Below are positions 40,824 to 49,676 of a DNA stretch of 64,000 bases, piece by piece (positions within the stretch are counted from its first letter, which is position 1; each line of letters starts with the position of its first letter). Under the pieces are notes generated by a model that saw nothing but the letters and a program-made list of their open reading frames with translations, was not told the origin of the DNA and searched no databases. The translations under genes were made by a program, and so were the position numbers. This DNA comes from an uncultured Bacteroidales bacterium (GTDB taxonomy: Bacteria; Bacteroidota; Bacteroidia; Bacteroidales; Muribaculaceae), in contig CACWID010000010.1 in assembly GCA_902760865.1 (NCBI GenBank), forward strand, positions 16,864-80,863, read 5' to 3'.

Positions 40824-40840
40824 TGTAAAAAATACACAAA
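40824..40840. promoter_or_regulatory. operator-like site S1 (TGTAAAAAATACACAAA)
   Basis: Perfect 17-bp direct repeat of S2. Lies upstream of the -7 box of the NrtR-like gene. Confidence 0.5.
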
Positions 40841-40868
40841 TTATTTTGGAGGTTTAAAAATTTGGCAT

Positions 40869-40876
40869 TACTTTTG
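40869..40876 (+). promoter_or_regulatory. -7 box TACTTTTG
   Basis: 33 nt upstream of the ATG at 40909. Flanked by sites S1 and S2. Confidence 0.6.
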
Positions 40877-40879
40877 CAG

Positions 40880-40896
40880 TGTAAAAAATACACAAA
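40880..40896. promoter_or_regulatory. operator-like site S2 (TGTAAAAAATACACAAA)
   Basis: Identical to S1. Sits between the -7 box (40869-40876) and the ATG at 40909. Confidence 0.5.
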
Positions 40897-40908
40897 GGGT
40901 ATCTGACG

Positions 40909-41640
40909 ATGAAATACAATGAGCAAACCAAGCAATGGGAATCGCCCTACTGGCATCCGGCTGTGACGACCGACGCAGTCGTGTTCGGCTTTGACGGCGT
41001 GGGGCTGAATGTCTTGCTCATCCAGCGCGGCCTGGACCCTTACAAGAACATGTGGGCGCTGCCTGGCGGATTCATGCGTCGCGAGGATGAGAGCGCCGAG
41101 GCCTGTGCCTATCGCGAGTTGCACGAGGAGACTGATGTGGACGACATCTACATGGAGGAGTTAGGTACGTTCTCCAGCCGCAATCGTGACCCGCGCGAGC
41201 GCGTCATCACCATCGCCTTCTTTGCCCTGGTGGTCAAGGACAAGTACCATGTCATGGGCGGTGACGATGCCAGCAATGCCAAGTGGTTCCCGGTCAAGGA
41301 ACTGCCCGAATTGGCCTTCGACCACGCGGATATCGTAGCGTTAGCCCTCGAACGGCTACGCCAGCGCATCCACTTCGAGCCCATTGGATTTCACTTGCTT
41401 GACAAGGAATTCACAATGCCCCAGTTACACAATATTTATATAGCTATTTTGGATCCGCCCGAGGATGACATGAAACTTAGAGACAGAAGAAATTTTCAGA
41501 AAAAGATGTTGAATCTCGGGTATATCAGGGAGACCGGATACAAGGTGACAGGAAACCCTCACCGTGCTCCCAAGTTGTACACTTTTGACGAAGAAGCCTA
41601 CCAGCAAGCCAAGAAGATAGGCATGCGCCTAGAGTTCTGA
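40909..41640 (+). CDS. NrtR-family protein: Nudix hydrolase domain fused to C-terminal winged-helix DNA-binding domain
   Basis: 243 aa. Nudix box GGFMRREDESAEACAYRELHEETD. C-terminal LAFDHADIVALALERLRQRIHFEPIGFHLLDKEFTMPQLHNIY...RNFQKKM...APKLYTF matches the NrtR wHTH architecture. Confidence 0.75.
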   Translation: MKYNEQTKQWESPYWHPAVTTDAVVFGFDGVGLNVLLIQRGLDPYKNMWALPGGFMRREDESAEACAYRELHEETDVDDIYMEELGTFSSRNRDPRERVITIAFFALVVKDKYHVMGGDDASNAKWFPVKELPELAFDHADIVALALERLRQRIHFEPIGFHLLDKEFTMPQLHNIYIAILDPPEDDMKLRDRRNFQKKMLNLGYIRETGYKVTGNPHRAPKLYTFDEEAYQQAKKIGMRLEF

Positions 41641-41717
41641 TCGGCTGACAGGCGGCGGAATCAACCTAGATCCAACCCTTGGAATTACAGGGGGCTGGAG
41701 ACATGTCAGAGATGGTT

Positions 41718-41738
41718 AATGTGTCAATTTTACACATT
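41718..41738. promoter_or_regulatory. operator-like palindrome S3 (AATGTGTCAATTTTACACATT)
   Basis: 9/10-bp inverted arms. The core TGTGTCAATTTTACA is related to the reverse complement of S1/S2. Confidence 0.5.
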
Positions 41739-41773
41739 GAGCCGTGTCAGACATTCGTGACCCGGAATCTGCC

Positions 41774-41792
41774 AATGTGTAAATTTTACATT
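41774..41792. promoter_or_regulatory. operator-like site S4 (AATGTGTAAATTTTACATT)
   Basis: Matches S3 at 16 of 17 positions over the core. Lies 43 bp upstream of the -7 box of the vWA-fusion gene. Confidence 0.5.
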
Positions 41793-41834
41793 TTGGCAAG
41801 GTTGCAGAAATAGAAGATGCATTGAAAAGTGCTG

Positions 41835-41842
41835 TAATTTTG
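41835..41842 (+). promoter_or_regulatory. -7 box TAATTTTG
   Basis: 96 nt upstream of the ATG at 41938, downstream of S3 and S4. Confidence 0.55.
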
Positions 41843-41937
41843 CAGCGACAACATAACAAGACAGAGAACTGAAAACATATAATGAGTGTATTTATTATTA
41901 GTAGTAGTAATTAACGGTTTGATAAAAGTTTGACATT

Positions 41938-43122
41938 ATGAAAATTCCATTTAAGAGAAACAAGAGTGCGGCCCCTATGGCCAACGAAGGATGCCCTACA
42001 GGGAATGGTATGAATCAGGAACCCGAGGCCGACAACGGCCAGGAGAAGGTGTGTATGGACCCCAAGAAAGCCCACGTCTATAACCTCATCATCGTCGATG
42101 AGAGCGGTTCGATGGGTGGTCTGGAGCAGGTGACCATCAGCGGTATCAACGAGACCATCGCCACCATCAGGAAGGCGCAGGAGGACTTTGCCGACAAGCA
42201 GCAGCACTTCCTCACGCTGGTCACGTTTGACGAGAGAGGGGATGCGCATCCCGTCCGAACCCTCATCGATGCCATGCCCATCGGCGACGTGCATGACTTC
42301 CATGATTACCGTCCCACTGGCTGCACGCCCCTGTTTGACGCCATGGGCCAGTCGCTGACCCGGTTGCATGAGCGCATCAAGGACGATGAGAACGCCACGG
42401 CAGTGGTGACCGTCATCACCGACGGCCTGGAGAACGCCTCCCGCGAGTGGACGGGCGAGGCCCTGCGTAACCTCATTGAGCGCCTCAAGGAAGAGGGCTG
42501 GTCCTTCTCCTACATGGGCTCGTGCCACGATGTGGTCGAGGTGACCAGGAGATTGTCTATCGACCACGTGATGCAGTTTGACCACGATGATCTGGGCGCG
42601 TCCAACACGTGGCACCGCGACAGCTCATCCAAGTTTGCTCACTTTCGCCGTATGTGCTGCGAGTTTGATGCCAATGACAGCCGAGAAATGAAAATGGCCA
42701 AGCGCCGTGCCCAAGCTAGCGCCTACTATGCCGACCGCGTTACTCCCGACTGGATTGAGCAGCTAGCCGACAACGAGATCTTTGTCTTCGGCAGCAATCC
42801 CCAGGGGAACCATGCCGGCGGTGCCGCCGCCCATGCGGTGAAGAACTTCGGTGCCATCATGGGTCAGGGCGAGGGTCCCCAGGGCCAGAGCTACGCCATC
42901 CCCACCACGGGCGATTTCGTCCTGTTTGCTCAGGCAGTGCAGCGCTTCGTGTACTATGCCAGCCAGCATCCCGACCAGCGATTCCTGGTTACCCGCGTGG
43001 GCTGCGGCAGCGCGGGCTACGACGTGCATAGGGTGGCACGGCTGTTCGTCGATGCCATCAAGCAGGAGAACATTGCCCTGCCTATGGACTTCTGGATGCA
43101 CCTGGGCCTCAGGATGTTCTAG
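41938..43122 (+). CDS. cytoplasmic vWA-domain protein fused to a C-terminal Rossmann-like (LOG/DprA/SLOG-type) module
   Basis: 394 aa with no signal peptide. vWA domain with MIDAS residues D54-E-S-G-S58...TGCT...TDG. C-terminal EIFVFGSNPQGNHAGGAAAHAVKNFGAIMGQGEGPQGQSYAIPT...VTRVGCGSAGY recalls small phage-associated FVFGSN...HGxGAA...SYAIPT proteins (from memory). Confidence 0.6.
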   Translation: MKIPFKRNKSAAPMANEGCPTGNGMNQEPEADNGQEKVCMDPKKAHVYNLIIVDESGSMGGLEQVTISGINETIATIRKAQEDFADKQQHFLTLVTFDERGDAHPVRTLIDAMPIGDVHDFHDYRPTGCTPLFDAMGQSLTRLHERIKDDENATAVVTVITDGLENASREWTGEALRNLIERLKEEGWSFSYMGSCHDVVEVTRRLSIDHVMQFDHDDLGASNTWHRDSSSKFAHFRRMCCEFDANDSREMKMAKRRAQASAYYADRVTPDWIEQLADNEIFVFGSNPQGNHAGGAAAHAVKNFGAIMGQGEGPQGQSYAIPTTGDFVLFAQAVQRFVYYASQHPDQRFLVTRVGCGSAGYDVHRVARLFVDAIKQENIALPMDFWMHLGLRMF

Positions 43123-43226
43123 TAGTGAGCCAGGAAGGACGCCCTCAAGGTTACCAATAGTACTGAATAACTGTTATACCCCACATAACTGAAGAAAACA
43201 CACACAAAGACTTGTTTACCCCGATT

Positions 43227-43265
43227 GGAGGGCTCGCCAAACCACCTCGGCGGGCCCTCCGTTTT
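43227..43265 (+). terminator. rho-independent terminator of the vWA-fusion gene
   Basis: GGAGGGCTCGCC...GGCGGGCCCTCC stem followed by GTTTTGCTT. It marks the left edge of the AT-rich island. Confidence 0.65.
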
Positions 43266-43631
43266 GCTTCATTCAAATTGTCTGACTACGGGATTTAATT
43301 GATGATAAAGAAAAAAACATTATACATCCTGTTTACATGATATTGCTGAATAAGGGCATCCGTTCATATTTGTATTCGATTAGTCCTTATACAAATTTGC
43401 CTCATCTTGTGTATGCATTTGGGGTTTGCTATACTTAATTCTTTATCGTAACAGGAAAAAACTGAAAAAAAACTTGTACACATCCATTTTAATAACGAAA
43501 TTTGCGGACAAGATGTGGATTCAGTGATACAATTCAAACGGCCCTTTTTTAGTTGTTATTGTATTGTGAATCATTATTATGTACGAATTTCTGATTTTCG
43601 TTATATTTTTTATTCAAGCAAAGTTGGGCAG

Positions 43632-44531
43632 ATGGCTGAAGATTACGATATATTTATTAGCTATAGGCGTGATGGCGGTTTCGCAACTGCAAATCATATC
43701 TACAAATTGCTGACTCGAGATGGATATTCTGTCTGTTTTGATGTTGATTCACTCCGAGAAGGTGATTTCAATATCAATGTCTTGAATAGTATAGATCAGT
43801 GTACTGATTTCCTGCTTATTGTAGATAGGCATTGTTTTGACAAAACTTTGGATAGTAATTTTGATTCAAGATATGATTGGTTGAGGATGGAATTAGCATA
43901 TGCCTTGAAACAGGACAAGAATATTGTACCAATACTCTTGAATGGCATCAATAATTTCCCCCAGAATTTGCCTGAAGATATTTGTGCTGTAACAACTAAG
44001 AATGGGCCTGAGTACAATCAGAGTTACTTTGATGAGTTTTACAATAAATTGAGATTATTCCTTCGTAGTAATCCTAAGAATATCCGTTTCTCCCATAAAA
44101 AAAAGATACTGGTAAGTGCTTTTATTATTGTAGCATTAGTATTAGCTTACTTGTTTAAAGTGCCTGATGGTTTTGGGAGCAAAGTTATTGAAGTCGAGGA
44201 TTCATTGTGTATAAATCCGGTTCTGGGACAATTTAAATATACTGGTCCAATTGATCAAGATGGCCTGCCTCATGGAAAGGGTAAAGCAGTATTTCCCATA
44301 GGGGATACCTATGAAGGGGATTTTTCTCATGGTAAGTTCGAGGGGAAATGTATCTATAACCATGTCGAGGTGGGTGATAAGTTTTACGGAACTTATAAGG
44401 ATAATGTGAGATATGAAGGCACCTATGTCTGGCAAGACGGTCCCTATTTTACTGGTTTGTATAAGAATAATGAGTTATATAAAGGTACACTATATGATGT
44501 TAGTGGGAAAATTCTCATGAAATATAAATAG
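43632..44531 (+). CDS. TIR domain - single TM - MORN-repeat protein
   Basis: Start at ATG 43632 (MAEDYDIFISYRRDGG). TIR motifs DIFISY and DWLRMELAYAL (putative catalytic E87). TM segment ILVSAFIIVALVLAYLF. C-terminal MORN-like repeats YEGDFSHGKFEGKC, YGTYKDNVRYEGTY and FTGLYKNNELYKGT. AT-rich gene. Confidence 0.7.
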   Translation: MAEDYDIFISYRRDGGFATANHIYKLLTRDGYSVCFDVDSLREGDFNINVLNSIDQCTDFLLIVDRHCFDKTLDSNFDSRYDWLRMELAYALKQDKNIVPILLNGINNFPQNLPEDICAVTTKNGPEYNQSYFDEFYNKLRLFLRSNPKNIRFSHKKKILVSAFIIVALVLAYLFKVPDGFGSKVIEVEDSLCINPVLGQFKYTGPIDQDGLPHGKGKAVFPIGDTYEGDFSHGKFEGKCIYNHVEVGDKFYGTYKDNVRYEGTYVWQDGPYFTGLYKNNELYKGTLYDVSGKILMKYK

Positions 44532-44621
44532 AAAAATTATTATCGTATAGATTGATGTAATTATTGAATATCAGAAAAAACGATGCGGAATTAGTTTTTC
44601 ACTAAATATAATAAAAAGAAT

Positions 44622-45164
44622 ATGAAACGAAGAGGCAGAATATATATATTGGTATTATTGGTGTTTTGTCTGAGTTCCAGCTGTAATAAAAAGAATCAGA
44701 ATATTACAGGTAATTCTTCACAGGATACGGTAACGGTATCAAGTGATAGTTCTATTATTCATTCAAGGAATGGATATGACACATTGAGAGTTGATAATGA
44801 TTCATTGGATGCTATAGTCAGAACAAGAGATTCAATAGCGAGTGAAAAACGACATGATAGTATCGGAATAGTTCGTGAAAAGAATCATCAACAAGAACCT
44901 TCTGGAAACAATCAGAAACCGAATAATCAGAATGATACAAAAGCAAATGATAAAGGTGTAAAACCATCAACGCGACCGTCTGACAAAAAAACGAGATCTG
45001 ATGATCGAAAAACTGTCACTCAAAAACCTTATAGAGCCCCACTTGGAGCAGGAGAAGGGTCAGAGGATGGATCAGAGGGGGGAGGATACAACCCTGGCCC
45101 ACCTCAAGCAACACCGCCTATAAAGTATCCATTGCCTCATAAACCTAGACCTAAAGGGAGATAG
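44622..45164 (+). CDS. low-complexity lipoprotein, unknown function
   Basis: 180 aa. Lipobox LSSSC. Ser/Asn/Lys-rich with a Gly/Pro-rich C-terminus. AT-rich like the neighbouring TIR gene. Confidence 0.5.
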   Translation: MKRRGRIYILVLLVFCLSSSCNKKNQNITGNSSQDTVTVSSDSSIIHSRNGYDTLRVDNDSLDAIVRTRDSIASEKRHDSIGIVREKNHQQEPSGNNQKPNNQNDTKANDKGVKPSTRPSDKKTRSDDRKTVTQKPYRAPLGAGEGSEDGSEGGGYNPGPPQATPPIKYPLPHKPRPKGR

Positions 45165-45392
45165 CAGTCGCTTGAAGTTTTTGACTTTGACAATGGTATA
45201 GTTACATTGCCGATGGTGAGATGCGATAATTGGCTAGAAGGAATGTGTGTCGTTGGGAGTTGCCCTAATAGATAGCACTCTGTTTTTAGGGATAATTTGG
45301 TGATGTTCAACACAGTTTTATGATTTTATCATTTTCTGTGAAAGAATTCTCTTAATTTGTGGACTAGTAAAGTATTAATTGTTAGAATAGAT

Positions 45393-47771
45393 ATGAGATT
45401 TTCTAATTTTAGAATGACGGTTTTGGTTGTTGTCGCTATGCTGGCGATGACTGCCATGGGACAGCCCAAGGCGCTGACGTTTAACGACGCAACACGCCAC
45501 CAGACCGTAACGGTGACCGCCGTGGGCGAGGACATTGTGCGTGTGGATGTGGTGCCCGACGGGTGGAACGGCACACGCCTGCCATCGCTGGCACTGGACA
45601 AGAACGCCAAGGCCGAGATTAACGTCGAGGAGTTGGAGGACATGAGCGTGATGCGCACCGGCAGCGGCATGAAGGTGGTGCTGGACAGGACCATGGGCAG
45701 CATCACGGTGGGCAGCCGCAATGGCTATTACATCACCGACCTGTGTGACCGCGGCTCATCGAAGCTGACGCTGCTGCACCACGGCCATGAGTCGTTCTAC
45801 GGCGCTGGCGAGCGCGGCTACTCGTTTAACCTGGCCGGCGACACGCTTGTCAACTACAATAGCCAGAACTACGGTTACCAGATGGGCGAGGCGCGCACCA
45901 AGCTGATGGGCATCACCATGCCGATGGTGATTTCGTCCAAGGGCTACGGCGTGCTGTTTGACGACTTCTGCAAGTCCTCGCTTGTCGTGGGGGACAATGA
46001 ACTCCGGTATTCTTCTACCTCCCCGCAGCCCATCTCCTATTACGTCATCGACGGCAACGGCAAGGTCGAGAACGTGGTCAGGAACTTCACTTGGCTCGTA
46101 GGCCGTCAGGAACTGCCGCCGCTGTGGACGCTGGGCTACATCACCTCGAAGTATGGCTACCGTGACCAGCGCGAGAGCGAGGGCGTGGTCGATACCCTCA
46201 AGCGCGAGGGCTACCCGCTCGACGGCATCGTGTTCGACCTGTACTGGTATGGCCAGGAGGAGGACATGGGGCGCCTGGAGTGGGACAAGCAGCAGTGGCC
46301 CGACCACCGCAAGATGCTGCGTGACTTCAAGGAGAAGGGCGTCAATGTGGTGACCATCTCGCAGCCCTATGTGCTGACCAACGGCCGCGCCATCGACAAT
46401 TACCGCCTGCTGGATCCCCAGGGCATCTTCTGCAAGACCGACGGCACCGACACGACCCACACCGTCACCATCTGGGTGGGACAGGGCGGCATGTTTGACG
46501 TGTCCAATCCCGCCACACGCCAGTGGCTGCGCAACCGTTACAAATCGCTCACCGACGAGGGCGTGACCGGCTGGTGGGGCGACCTGGGCGAACCCGAGAA
46601 GCACCCGCTCGAAATCCGCCACTACAACGGCCTGACCGCCGAGCAATACCACAATTACTACGGCAACGAGTGGAGCAGCATCATCTATAATATGTTCAAG
46701 GAGGAGTACCCCGACCGTCGCCCGATGGTCATGATGCGTGCCGGCACCGCCGGCCTGCAGCGCTATTCGGTGTTCCCCTGGTCCACCGACGTGTCCCGCT
46801 CGTGGGGAGGCCTGCAGCCCCAGGTGACCATCATGCTCAACGCGGGCCTGAGCGGTCTGGGCTATATGTCGCACGATGTGGGCGGCTTTGCCGTCGATCC
46901 TGCCAACAAGCGCGACGGCGAACTCTACATCCGCTGGCTGCAGTTGGGTCTGTTCTCGCCCATGCTGCGCACCCACTCGACCTATCATGCCGAGCCTTAC
47001 CATTACACCGAGTTCGGCGACCTGACGCTGCGCATCATCAAGCAGCGCTACGCCTGGCTGCCCTATAACTACACGCTGGCCTATGACAACGCCCGCAACG
47101 GTCTGCCCATGGTGCGCCCGTTGGGCTTCTATGAGGATGACAAGCAGATCAGCCGTTATGACCACATCTGGGACCAGTACCTGTGGGGCCGCGACGTGAT
47201 GGTGGCTCCCGTGATGCAGCAGGGCGCCGTCAGCCGTGATATCACCTTCCCCGAGGGCACTTGGGTCGATGTCAACCATCCCGAGAAGCGCTACGAGGGC
47301 CACACGACGGTCAACTACAGCGCACCGCTCGAGGTGTTGCCGCTGTTCGCCCGTGCGGGTGCCTTCATTCCCCAGGCCAACTACGAGATGCAGAACGTGG
47401 GCGACTATAACCCCGACAAATTAGACATTATATATTATACCAGCGACTCGCCGTCGACCTACATCCTGTTTGACGACGACCTGCACTCGACAGGCACGTT
47501 GGCCAGGGACCAGCACCGCGAGATCCAGTTCACCGCCACGCCCCAGGGCAAGGTGTGCTATGTCACCATCCAGGGCCGCGGCAATGTCGCCGGCGACACG
47601 CCCAACAAGGACTACCGCCTCATCGTTCCCGCCACGACCAAGCCCTCCAAGGTGTTGATCAACGGCAAGAAGGCATCGGGCGTGACCTATGACAAGTCCA
47701 CCGGCCGTCTCGTGATTCCCGTCTCCATCCCTGACATCGCCACGGCGACCACGATTGAATGGAGCAAGTAA
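45393..47771 (+). CDS. GH31 family glycoside hydrolase (alpha-glucosidase-like)
   Basis: Start at ATG 45393 (signal peptide MRFSNFRMTVLVVVAMLAMTAMG). GH31-like core with GVTGWWGDLGEPE and YMSHDVGGF regions. 792 aa. Confidence 0.75.
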   Translation: MRFSNFRMTVLVVVAMLAMTAMGQPKALTFNDATRHQTVTVTAVGEDIVRVDVVPDGWNGTRLPSLALDKNAKAEINVEELEDMSVMRTGSGMKVVLDRTMGSITVGSRNGYYITDLCDRGSSKLTLLHHGHESFYGAGERGYSFNLAGDTLVNYNSQNYGYQMGEARTKLMGITMPMVISSKGYGVLFDDFCKSSLVVGDNELRYSSTSPQPISYYVIDGNGKVENVVRNFTWLVGRQELPPLWTLGYITSKYGYRDQRESEGVVDTLKREGYPLDGIVFDLYWYGQEEDMGRLEWDKQQWPDHRKMLRDFKEKGVNVVTISQPYVLTNGRAIDNYRLLDPQGIFCKTDGTDTTHTVTIWVGQGGMFDVSNPATRQWLRNRYKSLTDEGVTGWWGDLGEPEKHPLEIRHYNGLTAEQYHNYYGNEWSSIIYNMFKEEYPDRRPMVMMRAGTAGLQRYSVFPWSTDVSRSWGGLQPQVTIMLNAGLSGLGYMSHDVGGFAVDPANKRDGELYIRWLQLGLFSPMLRTHSTYHAEPYHYTEFGDLTLRIIKQRYAWLPYNYTLAYDNARNGLPMVRPLGFYEDDKQISRYDHIWDQYLWGRDVMVAPVMQQGAVSRDITFPEGTWVDVNHPEKRYEGHTTVNYSAPLEVLPLFARAGAFIPQANYEMQNVGDYNPDKLDIIYYTSDSPSTYILFDDDLHSTGTLARDQHREIQFTATPQGKVCYVTIQGRGNVAGDTPNKDYRLIVPATTKPSKVLINGKKASGVTYDKSTGRLVIPVSIPDIATATTIEWSK

Positions 47772-48011: not shown

Positions 48012-49676
48012 ATGAAAACTTCTGTTAAAAACTTGATGATGAGCTTCGCGCTCATGGGATGCCTGATCTTTGGTGCATCCGACGCTTCGGCCCAGGGCCG
48101 CAGTCGTTCACAAGGAGGCAGCACCACCAGCAGAAGCCAGTCGGCGGCTGTCTCACGTACAAACAATACCCCTGCACCGGCGGTGAGCCGCTCCAGCAGT
48201 ACATCTAGCAGCTCGGTGAGCCGTAGCAGCTCAGCAACGCCTCAGGTGAACCGCTCGTCCAGCAGCAGTTCCATGAGCACGACACGCAGCAGCTCGGCAA
48301 CGCCTCAGGTGAACCGCTCGTCCAGCAGCAGTTCCATGAGCACGACACGCAGCAGCTCGGCAACGCCTCAGGTGAACCGCTCGTCCAGTAGCAGTTCCTC
48401 GAGCACCCGCAGCAGCTCGGTAGCTCCCCAGGTGAACCGCTCATCCAGCAGCAGTTCCTCGAGCACCCGCAGCTCGGTAACGCCTCAGGTGAACCGCTCC
48501 ACAGGCAGCAGCACCACGAGCACCCGTAGCAGTTCGGTAGCTCCCCAGGTGAACCGCTCCACTGGCAGCGGCACCACGAGCACCACGACCCGCAGCGGCT
48601 CGGCAACGACTCATGTGAACCGTTCAACTGGCACCAGTTCCACGAGCACCACGACCCGTGACATCAATACCGGCACGGTGAGCCGCAGCACCACGACCCC
48701 GACGGGCACTTCAGGCAATAGCGCAAACACCCGTTCGGGCGGAGCAACGACCCGCGGCACTACCGGAACCACTGGTGTGACCGGATCCTCGAGCTCGACC
48801 AAGGGCGGCTCTGTCGGCACCGGCGACGTGACTCGCCACAGCGATAGCGGCAGCCCCAAGGTGACCACGACTCCGAGCAGCATGACTGAGGGCCGCACCA
48901 TCGGCATCTCGTCCACCCCCACCACCAAGCGCGGCGATGGTACCACCAAGCGTGGTGACGGCACCGGCAAGCGTGGCGATGGTAAAGGCAAACCCGGCGA
49001 CGGCCACGGCGGCAAGCCCGGCGACAATGGCGGCAAGCCCGGCGACGGACACGGAGGTAATCATGGCCACGGAGGTGGCGGAGGCCGTCCTGGTTTCGAT
49101 TCACACAACCACTTCGACTACAACGGCCACCACTATGGCAACGACTTCCACAGGAACTATCACAGCCACTCCTGGAGTTGGAGTCGCCCCCTGCCTCCTC
49201 CCGTACGTCCCTACCGTCCCGCACCTCTCGTATGGTATCGCCCCGTGATCCCCGCTGGTTGGTATCCCTATGCAGGAGCCCCCGTGATCGATCGCATCCT
49301 GGGCATCAGCTTCGGAACGCTCTTTGACATCTCGCTCGACTATCTGTACTACAATGGCTACGAGATCGATGGCTATGCAGACCACATCATCTATCTGAGG
49401 AATGTGCCCCTGCTGCACCTCGTCTGGGACGACGTCATGCTGAGCTACGATAGTTTCGACAGATTGGTAAACGCACAGTTTGTTTACATGACTTCGCACT
49501 ATGACACATACCGCTACAACAGGATTTACAACAACCTGTGCAGGGTATATGGGACTCCCATCACCGGCAATGGTGCAGAAATCAGTTGGTACGGAGGGAA
49601 CAGCACCGGTTGGGTGACCCTCTCCAGGCACAACAATCTGGGCTACTACTACATCACACTGTCGATCGGATATTGA
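48012..49676 (+). CDS. secreted Ser/Thr-rich repeat protein with triple RGD, Gly/His-rich tract and a globular Tyr-rich C-terminal domain
   Basis: 554 aa with a signal peptide. Seven ~21-aa repeats RSSSATPQVNRSSSSSSMSTT. KRGDG occurs three times. The conserved-looking C-terminal ~170 aa are of unknown family. Confidence 0.6.
   Translation: MKTSVKNLMMSFALMGCLIFGASDASAQGRSRSQGGSTTSRSQSAAVSRTNNTPAPAVSRSSSTSSSSVSRSSSATPQVNRSSSSSSMSTTRSSSATPQVNRSSSSSSMSTTRSSSATPQVNRSSSSSSSSTRSSSVAPQVNRSSSSSSSSTRSSVTPQVNRSTGSSTTSTRSSSVAPQVNRSTGSGTTSTTTRSGSATTHVNRSTGTSSTSTTTRDINTGTVSRSTTTPTGTSGNSANTRSGGATTRGTTGTTGVTGSSSSTKGGSVGTGDVTRHSDSGSPKVTTTPSSMTEGRTIGISSTPTTKRGDGTTKRGDGTGKRGDGKGKPGDGHGGKPGDNGGKPGDGHGGNHGHGGGGGRPGFDSHNHFDYNGHHYGNDFHRNYHSHSWSWSRPLPPPVRPYRPAPLVWYRPVIPAGWYPYAGAPVIDRILGISFGTLFDISLDYLYYNGYEIDGYADHIIYLRNVPLLHLVWDDVMLSYDSFDRLVNAQFVYMTSHYDTYRYNRIYNNLCRVYGTPITGNGAEISWYGGNSTGWVTLSRHNNLGYYYITLSIGY
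48225..48659 (+). repeat. in-frame coding tandem repeat, 63-nt unit (two perfect copies, then five 57-66-nt variants)
   Basis: Units 48225-48287 and 48288-48350 are identical except for one base at unit position 9 (tcagca in the first, tcggca in the second). They encode SSSATPQVNRSSSSSSMSTTR. Confidence 0.9.

Follow-up and report, generated by a model that had tools for sequence, protein, structure and literature searches.

A conserved regulator-effector gene pair, probably answering ADP-ribosylation stress, adjoins an unrelated TIR island in a rumen Muribaculaceae genome

We analyzed region 40824-45164 of a 64-kb window, the window being the whole 64,000-nucleotide stretch of contig CACWID010000010.1 from an uncultured Bacteroidales bacterium of the family Muribaculaceae. 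The region carries four open reading frames (ORFs) on the plus strand: 40909-41640 (gene 1, 243 aa), 41938-43122 (gene 2, 394 aa), 43515-44531 (gene 3) and 44622-45164 (180 aa). Gene 1 encodes an NrtR-family regulator and gene 2 a protein in which a vWA domain is joined to a macrodomain-like module (vWA-macro), while gene 3 encodes a TIR-MORN protein and the last ORF a lipoprotein. The surroundings are housekeeping in character, with TatD, M13 peptidase and DnaB on one side and a GH31 glycosidase, a Ser/Thr-rich repeat protein and an RNase Z-like gene on the other. Regional GC content is ~60%, bar brief dips in non-coding DNA, and falls to 33-37% over ~43.2-45.4 kb. A first-pass annotation had grouped genes 1 to 3 into one module centered on nicotinamide adenine dinucleotide (NAD) and ADP-ribose (ADPr). 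We instead favor, with a probability of about 0.6, the reading that the stretch holds two independent things, an ADPr-response gene pair (40824-43260) and an unrelated TIR cargo island (43270-45430). The earlier grouping holds for genes 1 and 2, which share a conserved operator, recur as a pair, and have relatives that neighbor or are fused to ADP-ribose-processing enzymes; it fails for the TIR partner. The features are collected in Table 1.

Table 1. Features of the analyzed region and of the adjoining island, in window coordinates.
Feature	Position	Strand	Basis or remark
Operator O1 (TGTAAAAAATACACAAA), upstream of regulator gene	40824..40840	+	Identical to O2, 56 bp apart
Bacteroidota-type -7 promoter box (TACTTTTG), directly before O2	40869..40876	+	Putative, from consensus
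Operator O2 (TGTAAAAAATACACAAA), overlapping the regulator's likely transcription start	40880..40896	+	Identical to O1; motif scan
NrtR-family Nudix plus winged-helix regulator, 243 aa, intact RELHEE Nudix core	40909..41640	+	Pfam, PDB relatives
Operator O3 (AATGTGTCAATTTTACACATTG), upstream of vWA-macro gene	41718..41739	+	Palindrome; conserved before vWA-macro genes in many loci
Operator O4 (AATGTGTAAATTTTACATTTTG), 56 bp past O3	41774..41795	+	Palindrome; conserved motif
Putative -7 promoter box of vWA-macro gene (TAATTTTG)	41835..41842	+	Putative, from sequence and repeat
Disordered first 44 residues of vWA-macro protein; start codon tentative	41938..42069	+	pLDDT <50 for residues 1-37
vWA domain, complete MIDAS (D54-x-S56-x-S58, T130, D162)	42070..42582	+	AlphaFold2 model, Foldseek, phrog_7371
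Helical linker, two long helices, residues 218-261	42589..42720	+	Model secondary structure
C-terminal macrodomain-fold module (predicted), A1S_2505 / phrog_2072 family, residues 263-394 plus stop codon	42724..43122	+	NCBIfam, PHROG, model
Intrinsic terminator of vWA-macro gene: 13-bp GC stem, then GUUUUGCUU	43226..43260	+	Hairpin -27 kcal/mol, z = -3.7
Low-GC cargo island, outside the module; replaces ~150 bp plus the GH31 promoter of sister species	43270..45430	.	Composition, blastn break-points
TIR (N-terminal, cytoplasmic)-single transmembrane helix (~44107-44160)-MORN (C-terminal) protein, 299 aa from ATG 43632	43632..44531	+	Pfam
Small low-complexity lipoprotein (signal peptide plus Cys, K/S/T/P-rich)	44622..45164	+	Follows TIR-MORN

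The product of gene 1 matched the Pfam models NUDIX (1.5e-19; 70.8 bits, cutoff 21.1), NrtR_WHD (4.5e-17; 62.4 bits, cutoff 27) and AraR_C (5e-11, also above the Pfam cutoff), in agreement with its first-pass assignment as a Nudix/winged helix-turn-helix regulator of the NrtR family. Its closest solved relative is AraR of B. thetaiotaomicron (5bs6, 7e-42), followed by Shewanella NrtR (3gz5, 1e-26); gene 1 aligned end to end with both and shares their architecture of a Nudix domain followed by a C-terminal winged helix. NrtR is reportedly an ADPr-responsive, Nudix-related transcriptional regulator of NAD metabolism (Rodionov 2008, Huang 2009), and AraR is said to be a Bacteroides offshoot of NrtR that serves as an arabinose regulator (Chang 2015). 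The Nudix box Ex7RELxEE is kept in gene 1 and in all homologs linked to gene 2, some of them fully canonical, whereas the box of AraR is degenerate. Because the metal- and nucleotide-binding core is intact, a nucleotide is favored over a sugar as the ligand of this NrtR-family member.

The predicted operator of this regulator is a 17-bp palindrome, TGTGTAAAwTTTACACA. Allowing up to three mismatches, we found four sites in the 64 kb, all of them before genes 1 and 2, where 0.06 would be expected by chance per window. The operator-like sites that had been noticed at the regulator, two identical 17-mers, are thus joined by two further palindromes before gene 2, and the spacing within each pair is the same. 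In 108 loci (99 vWA-macro and 9 TIR-MORN), the 52 kb directly upstream of NrtR or vWA-macro genes held 122 matches and the other 894 kb held 30, so that the motif is enriched 70-fold in the former. Paired sites are conserved before NrtR homologs in related and unrelated loci alike, and 13 loci that lack an adjacent regulator gene carry two or three motif copies directly upstream of the vWA-macro gene. The motif was absent near the TIR gene, near GH31 both in the window and in relatives, and from all TIR-MORN loci scanned.

The Bacteroidota -7 promoter consensus is TAnnTTTG, and the string TAnTTTTGCAG precedes both gene 1 and gene 2, with O2 abutting the box of gene 1. Palindromic operators before the regulator's own gene and its target, and the autoregulation that we predict from them, are likewise features of NrtR and AraR. 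The target is different: here it is a vWA-macro protein, with or without an ADP-ribosylglycohydrolase (ARH) or PARG, and not NAD-biosynthesis genes (NrtR) or arabinose genes (AraR). Operator pairs 55-56 bp apart were seen in many lineages (40824/40880 and 41720/41776 in the window; 4271/4327 in L013, 3472/3528 in L070 and 5580/5636 in L089), and triplets 27-30 bp apart occur in loci without an adjacent regulator (L058, L063, L092). This regular spacing would point to cooperative or looped binding in which the helical phasing is fixed. Neither a riboswitch in gene 2's long leader nor a tRNA integration site emerged from Rfam and tRNA scans (40.5-45.5 kb and 38-48 kb).

The full-length AlphaFold2 model of the gene 2 product (mean predicted local distance difference test score, pLDDT, 86) comprises a disordered N-terminus, a vWA domain, two long helices and a compact C-terminal alpha/beta domain, and we describe the product as a predicted cytoplasmic vWA-linker-macro protein. 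Many homologs start downstream of the ORF start in the window. The vWA domain, already recognized in the first-pass annotation, has a weak Pfam match and also matches phrog_7371. A Foldseek search of the PDB with the full-length model returned vWA domains only, with more than 170 matches at E <= 1e-3 that include TFIIH p44, Rpn10, integrin I and anthrax-receptor domains. All five residues of the metal ion-dependent adhesion site (MIDAS) are invariant in 48 homologs.

The C-terminal ~130 residues of gene 2 had been called SLOG-like, and the locus was said to hold no Macro domain; at the level of the predicted fold, both statements proved wrong. This segment matched NCBIfam NF049995, "A1S_2505 family phage non-structural protein" (5.5e-36), and phrog_2072 (2.4e-31), which are both annotated as of unknown function. 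Modeled in isolation (pLDDT 89.8), it adopts a three-layer alpha/beta/alpha fold with a mixed six-stranded sheet that matches solved macrodomains, and about 45 of its top 50 Foldseek matches in the PDB were macrodomains or designs built on them. The best was TARG1 with a TM-score of 0.65, TARG1 and DarG together spanning 0.58-0.65, and others were PARP14, the PARP9 macrodomain, DarG from three species, Poa1p, macroH2A and alphavirus nsP3. No LOG, DprA, ThsA-SLOG or TRPM-SLOG structure stood among the top 50, and gene 2 had no Pfam match to SLOG, LOG or Lysine_decarbox, and we therefore rejected the SLOG identity. In the viral structure library BFVD, true phage homologs came first, including crAss-like "ART-PolyVal" proteins, followed by annotated Macro proteins.

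TARG1 (OARD1) and DarG are ADPr hydrolases, DarG being the antitoxin of the DNA ADP-ribosyltransferase DarT, and macrodomains contact ADPr through an N-x6-GG-[VLIA] loop after strand 2 and a G-x-G loop before the last helix. A weak hhalign alignment (probability 21%; TARG1 sequence verified against PDB) set GGAA...FGA of the family opposite GAGIA...FGG of TARG1 and RVGCG opposite RIGCG. The corresponding family segments, SN-PQGNHA-GGAA and RVGCGSAG, are near-invariant and lie in that alignment opposite TARG1 GAGIA and RIGCGLD. The module differs from TARG1 and DarG in its fusion to a vWA domain and in its lack of sequence-level family membership. Going by the model, it would be a divergent macrodomain that probably binds ADPr.

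An exhaustive search with the macro-like domain yielded 4,254 clusters at 50% identity. Among 113 multidomain representatives, the A1S_2505 domain was fused to ARH (12), PARG (4), DUF1810 (2), DUF6717 (2), NUDIX (1) and others. The A1S_2505 / phrog_2072 family is abundant in phages and has no Pfam model; the vWA-macro fusion itself was not found in viral contigs, where the vWA and macro-like parts are present separately. DUF1810, DUF6939 and DUF6717 repeatedly neighbor or are fused to the A1S_2505 domain (L013-L015 and the multidomain representatives), which makes them candidates for ADPr-linked functions. We searched the literature on A1S_2505, and on DUF1810 together with ADP-ribose, and found nothing functional.

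The order M13-DnaB-NrtR-vWA-GH31 is kept by 12 genomes and ~19 metagenome contigs of the genus, which by itself proves little about genes 1 and 2. Distant gene 2 homologs (53-62% identity) lie in wholly different neighborhoods, and an NrtR homolog stands directly upstream of the vWA-macro gene, on the same strand, in at least 10 distinct flanking contexts. An ARH gene (PF03747, ADP_ribosyl_GH, 6e-41) lies between the two in 18 loci. A microbial-type PARG (PF10021, PARG_cat_microb) is encoded between them in L013-L015 and upstream of the vWA-macro gene in L089. In seven loci (L047, L049, L051-L053, L077, L086) the gene directly before the regulator encodes a 654-669-aa protein that ends in a DarT domain (PF14487, 3e-20). 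DarT is an ADP-ribosyltransferase that modifies thymidine in single-stranded DNA, and this version may be a toxin/eraser form of the system resembling a toxin-antitoxin pair. In these loci the DarT-domain protein is accompanied by a 191-aa protein of unknown function, upstream of an NrtR-ARH-vWA-macro operon and ~2.5-4.5 kb before the vWA-macro gene. Thus genes 1 and 2 recur together, and their regulation, neighborhood and domain fusions all point to macromolecular ADP-ribose chemistry.

Two further observations touch on these relatives. L067 and L095 have, ahead of ARH and the vWA-macro gene, an additional A1S_2505-related ORF that is shorter (199-212 aa), and some operons would accordingly carry paralogous macro-like modules. 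In the IMG/VR contigs L114-L116 and L126, predicted to be viral or prophage, a stand-alone vWA homolog (36% identity) adjoins Nudix and ADP-ribosylglycohydrolase genes, which would extend the theme past Bacteroidota chromosomes.

We suggest that genes 1 and 2 are a conserved, self-regulated pair that probably answers ADP-ribosylation stress. The gene 1 product would bind the four palindromes, two flanking its own promoter and two preceding gene 2, and both promoters would be shut at rest; repression is proposed because of the protein family and the placement of the operators. When an ADP-ribosyltransferase (ART) or NADase consumes NAD+, supplied by a phage, as a competitor-delivered toxin or, in some genomes, by a resident DarT-like enzyme, free ADPr or a close derivative would build up, occupy the Nudix pocket and release the repressor. 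We propose ADPr as the derepressing ligand because of the NrtR precedent, the intact Nudix box and the ADPr-processing neighbors. The induced vWA-macro protein would then recognize ADP-ribosylated macromolecules, with the MIDAS site of its vWA domain gripping the modified protein and the macro-like module binding, and perhaps removing, the ADPr. The ARH or PARG that many relatives co-encode would remove the modification, and the window would represent a minimal version that lacks them.

The nearest known parallel to this arrangement is a class of systems centered on ADP-ribosylglycohydrolase (ARG) for which a role against ADP-ribosylation by viruses was predicted (Iyer, Burroughs, Anantharaman & Aravind 2022, Viruses 14:1977, section 3.8; PMC9503650). 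Those systems combine a Nudix-HTH or WYL regulator with ARG, a phosphatase and vWA or other chaperones, with or without Macro/NADAR; the Nudix-HTH protein was proposed to be a negative regulator that senses ADPr, and vWA to be the peptide-binding component. Most of the loci have no coupled ART, their neighborhoods are variable and mosaic, and the phyla named are Actinobacteria, Planctomycetes and Proteobacteria. The class is a computational prediction with no experimental validation. The window has in common with it the Nudix-HTH regulator, the vWA component and a macro-like domain; the gene neighborhood is likewise variable and mosaic, and 18 related loci have ARG (ADP_ribosyl_GH) in the operon. 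It also resembles the class in that no ART or sirtuin was found in the window, yet a DarT-domain protein is coupled in 7 related loci. The window differs in lacking the defining ARG and the phosphatase, in fusing the vWA and ADPr modules into one protein, and in drawing its ADPr module from the A1S_2505 family, which Pfam Macro models do not see. It differs further in its Bacteroidota host, a rumen Muribaculaceae with relatives, and in the PARG or DarT-domain protein of some versions. What is new is a conserved, probably NrtR-controlled vWA-macro module, a Bacteroidota variant of a kind that had been described by computational prediction only.

Several points weigh against an ADPr-response pair, and they concern the ligand, the operators and the module in turn. 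The regulator scored 130 bits against the NCBIfam equivalog for ADPr-responsive NrtR, far under its cutoff of 400, and since its closest solved relative is the arabinose sensor AraR, an ADPr effector is not guaranteed. A distance of 43-115 bp separates O3 and O4 from the putative -7 box of gene 2 downstream of them, which is not textbook occlusion geometry, and neither the motif nor a neighboring NrtR gene is present in 25 of the 63 non-syntenic loci whose upstream sequence was long enough. The macrodomain assignment rests on predicted structure with Foldseek E-values of 4e-3 and weaker: Pfam Macro models gave no match to gene 2 at E <= 0.01, a search of PDB sequences with the family hidden Markov model (HMM) found no macrodomain, and neither that search nor phmmer with full-length gene 2 gave a useful sequence-level link to solved structures. 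In the weak hhalign alignment, the TARG1 catalytic residue K84 falls opposite a variable position and D125 opposite alanine. Because these equivalents are not conserved, hydrolysis by the TARG1/DarG mechanism is unlikely; the module may be limited to binding, and if it does catalyze, it would do so in another way than TARG1 and DarG. Finally, ARH, PARG, ART, DarT and SIR2 were all missing from the 64-kb window (tblastn, and Pfam on the neighbors), which leaves this version of the system with no proven eraser and sets it apart from DarTG toxin-antitoxin loci.

The apparent loss of the TARG1/DarG catalytic residues would suit a reader better than an eraser, and on that basis the vWA-macro protein could be a sensor-effector in defense or signaling. 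Its module would sense an ADPr-derived messenger made by a TIR or ART protein anywhere in the genome, its vWA domain would sequester or aggregate a target, and NrtR would provide feed-forward induction. Abundance of the module's family in phages would be expected if signals were being intercepted, and in conflict systems vWA domains serve for binding or assembly (PMC9503650). The repeated fusion and operon linkage to ARH and PARG, which are bona fide erasers, argue instead for the processing of ADPr adducts over signal-triggered killing; there is no toxic effector domain in the protein or operon, and PADLOC gave no hit. We regard this alternative as unlikely, though it is the strongest of those weighed here.

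Somewhat less probable still is a role in metabolism, in which gene 1 would be a classical NrtR controlling NAD+ homeostasis elsewhere in the genome and gene 2 would clean up NAD by-products such as O-acetyl-ADPr and ADPr-1''-phosphate as a housekeeping function, with no part in conflict. NrtR family membership, the intact Nudix box, the setting among DnaB, M13 peptidase, TatD and GH31, and stable inheritance across the whole genus would all fit such a role. However, no NAD-biosynthesis gene adjoined the locus in ~100 loci, and neighbors, when present, act on macromolecular ADP-ribosylation (ARH, PARG, DarT). The MIDAS site of the vWA domain implies a protein ligand and not a metabolite, and the macro-like domain is widespread in phages and polyvalent ART proteins.

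The TIR gene next to this pair looks, on sequence comparison, to be unrelated cargo whose adjacency to the proposed ADPr module is coincidental. The TIR-MORN protein noted in the first-pass annotation is present, with a Pfam TIR_2 match (6e-10), a transmembrane (TM) helix and MORN repeats, and homologs start at the 43632 Met. W83 and E87 are invariant, and because E87 is the position of the TIR catalytic glutamate the protein is probably NADase-competent. The caution, voiced together with the original grouping, that this adjacency might be chance is supported by synteny, by the strong terminator that separates the TIR gene from gene 2, and by sister species that lack the island. For the TIR gene, two outcomes that the first-pass annotation had itself named as refuting its grouping were seen: homologs of the three genes do not occur together elsewhere, and the island is missing where genes 1 and 2 persist. 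An HMM for the TIR domain found no match around the 99 vWA-macro loci. Conversely, neither NrtR nor vWA neighbored TIR-MORN homologs in their other contexts (~15 TIR-MORN loci). Homologs that are 57-67% identical occupy two such settings, one being LpxB-DHFR-ThyA-DUF2752-CD225, TIR-MORN, PLA1-DUF554-NAGLU and the other beside RyR-domain and protease genes.

The island, whose foreign composition had also been pointed out earlier, is delimited by comparison with sister species (blastn against L001, L003, L006, L007 and L029): homology stops at ~43265-43272, just past the terminator, and resumes at ~45430. In sister species this interval is occupied by ~150 bp or by low-GC cargo of another kind, such as a gene for a membrane protein or for a dockerin-like one. 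None of the 12 genome and ~19 metagenome sister loci that keep M13-DnaB-NrtR-vWA-GH31 has the island. Contigs 90-97% identical from other samples (cattle, gut, other) carry it in the same place, and when an empty site was sought within the species in contigs from four metagenomes, all four covering the site carried the island, with no deletion joint. It is therefore fixed in this species and absent from the rest of the genus. By junction alignment, the ancestral GH31 promoter and the 5' end of the GH31 leader were lost in the same replacement. For the island we found neither an integrase nor a clean target-site duplication, and the inverted repeats near its ends are weak (72%).

The three genes might nevertheless work together as a non-canonical Thoeris-like system, in which the TIR protein would make an ADPr-derived signal, the C-terminal module of gene 2 would sense it and the NrtR-like regulator would tune expression. 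They are adjacent on one strand in an arrangement that is stable in this species across several samples, the TIR protein keeps its catalytic glutamate, and its neighbor ends in a predicted ADPr-type macro-like fold, Macro effectors being known from type II Thoeris. We consider such a system very improbable. None of the 99 vWA-macro loci has a TIR gene, which largely refutes it, and the pairing is conserved nowhere else, with neither NrtR nor vWA beside TIR-MORN homologs in 5 other contexts; sister species keep genes 1 and 2 without the island, in a spot that can hold other cargo, and no operator accompanies the TIR gene behind its terminator. Models of the ThsB type stayed far under their cutoffs (PADLOC ThsB1, 21.5 bits, 2.6e-5, a partial match; NCBIfam ThcB4, 27.9 bits against a cutoff of 220). 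ThsA is SIR2-SLOG or Macro-TM, whereas the neighbor in the window has no SIR2, SLOG or TM effector part, and the TIR protein, which has a lipoprotein as partner, resides in the membrane itself. On synteny (~100 vWA-macro and ~15 TIR-MORN loci) we rejected both the three-gene and the Thoeris-like system.

Least probable of all is that gene 1 is an AraR-like sugar sensor controlling the downstream GH31 gene with gene 2 as a passenger, which we rejected because, despite the AraR relationship, the AraR_C match and a GH31 gene that follows gene 2 across the whole genus, there is no operator before GH31 and the NrtR-vWA pairing persists without GH31 or other sugar genes, the Nudix box of gene 1 is not degenerate as in AraR, and between gene 2 and GH31 stands a terminator, joined in this species by the 2.2-kb island.

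Separately from the ADPr-response pair, TIR-TM-MORN and the lipoprotein look like a conserved two-gene cassette, with a TIR domain predicted to be cytoplasmic, a periplasmic MORN part and a lipoprotein partner. A short low-complexity lipoprotein gene stands directly 3' of TIR-MORN in every context seen (the window, L020, L025, L028, L109 and L110; 76-180 aa), and the common feature of these lipoproteins is limited to a short ATP[AP][IV]K motif. The lipoprotein of the window had no family match in the profile libraries scanned. In gut and rumen metagenome contigs, the N-terminal TIR plus TM module (50-65% identical) is joined to interchangeable C-termini, namely FGE-sulfatase (PF03781), Sel1, WG_beta_rep, aspartyl protease and MORN, a receptor-like pattern in which the outside is exchanged and the TIR inside is kept. 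Across the genus, variable cargo occupies the spot behind the vWA-macro terminator (L007 9116-10144, L011 9167-10486, L037, L005/L032), in the form of different low-GC genes for a membrane protein, a dockerin-like secreted protein, or TPR and BspA-LRR proteins. Farther along the window, 48012-49676 encodes a secreted 554-aa protein with long tandem Ser/Thr-rich repeats (SSSATPQVNRSSSSSSMSTTR...) and a Gly/His-rich stretch; it had no family match, and its conservation in the relative L003 is limited to the C-terminal third.

To our knowledge, host counter-measures against phage or toxin ADP-ribosylation are experimentally almost unexplored, and the sole description that we know of is a computational prediction in other phyla. 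For gut and rumen Bacteroidota the locus can serve as a compact test case of two genes, with a defined operator, a directly testable regulator ligand and a single effector, and the operator motif would allow genome-wide mapping of the regulon. The analysis also assigns a predicted fold and a biochemical theme to the large uncharacterized A1S_2505 / phrog_2072 family, common in phages, and links DUF1810, DUF6939 and DUF6717 to the same ADPr theme. It removes the tempting but false reading as non-canonical Thoeris and sets apart a TIR-TM-MORN plus lipoprotein cassette with an architecture like that of a transmembrane receptor. More tentatively, and at somewhat less than even odds, we propose that the pair belongs to a widespread ADPr-inducible regulon of Bacteroidota whose core effector is a MIDAS-containing vWA domain fused to an unclassified clade of macrodomains. 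If this is true, one and the same unrecognized family would supply ADPr readers or erasers to host and phage alike, in an arms race over ADP-ribosylation.

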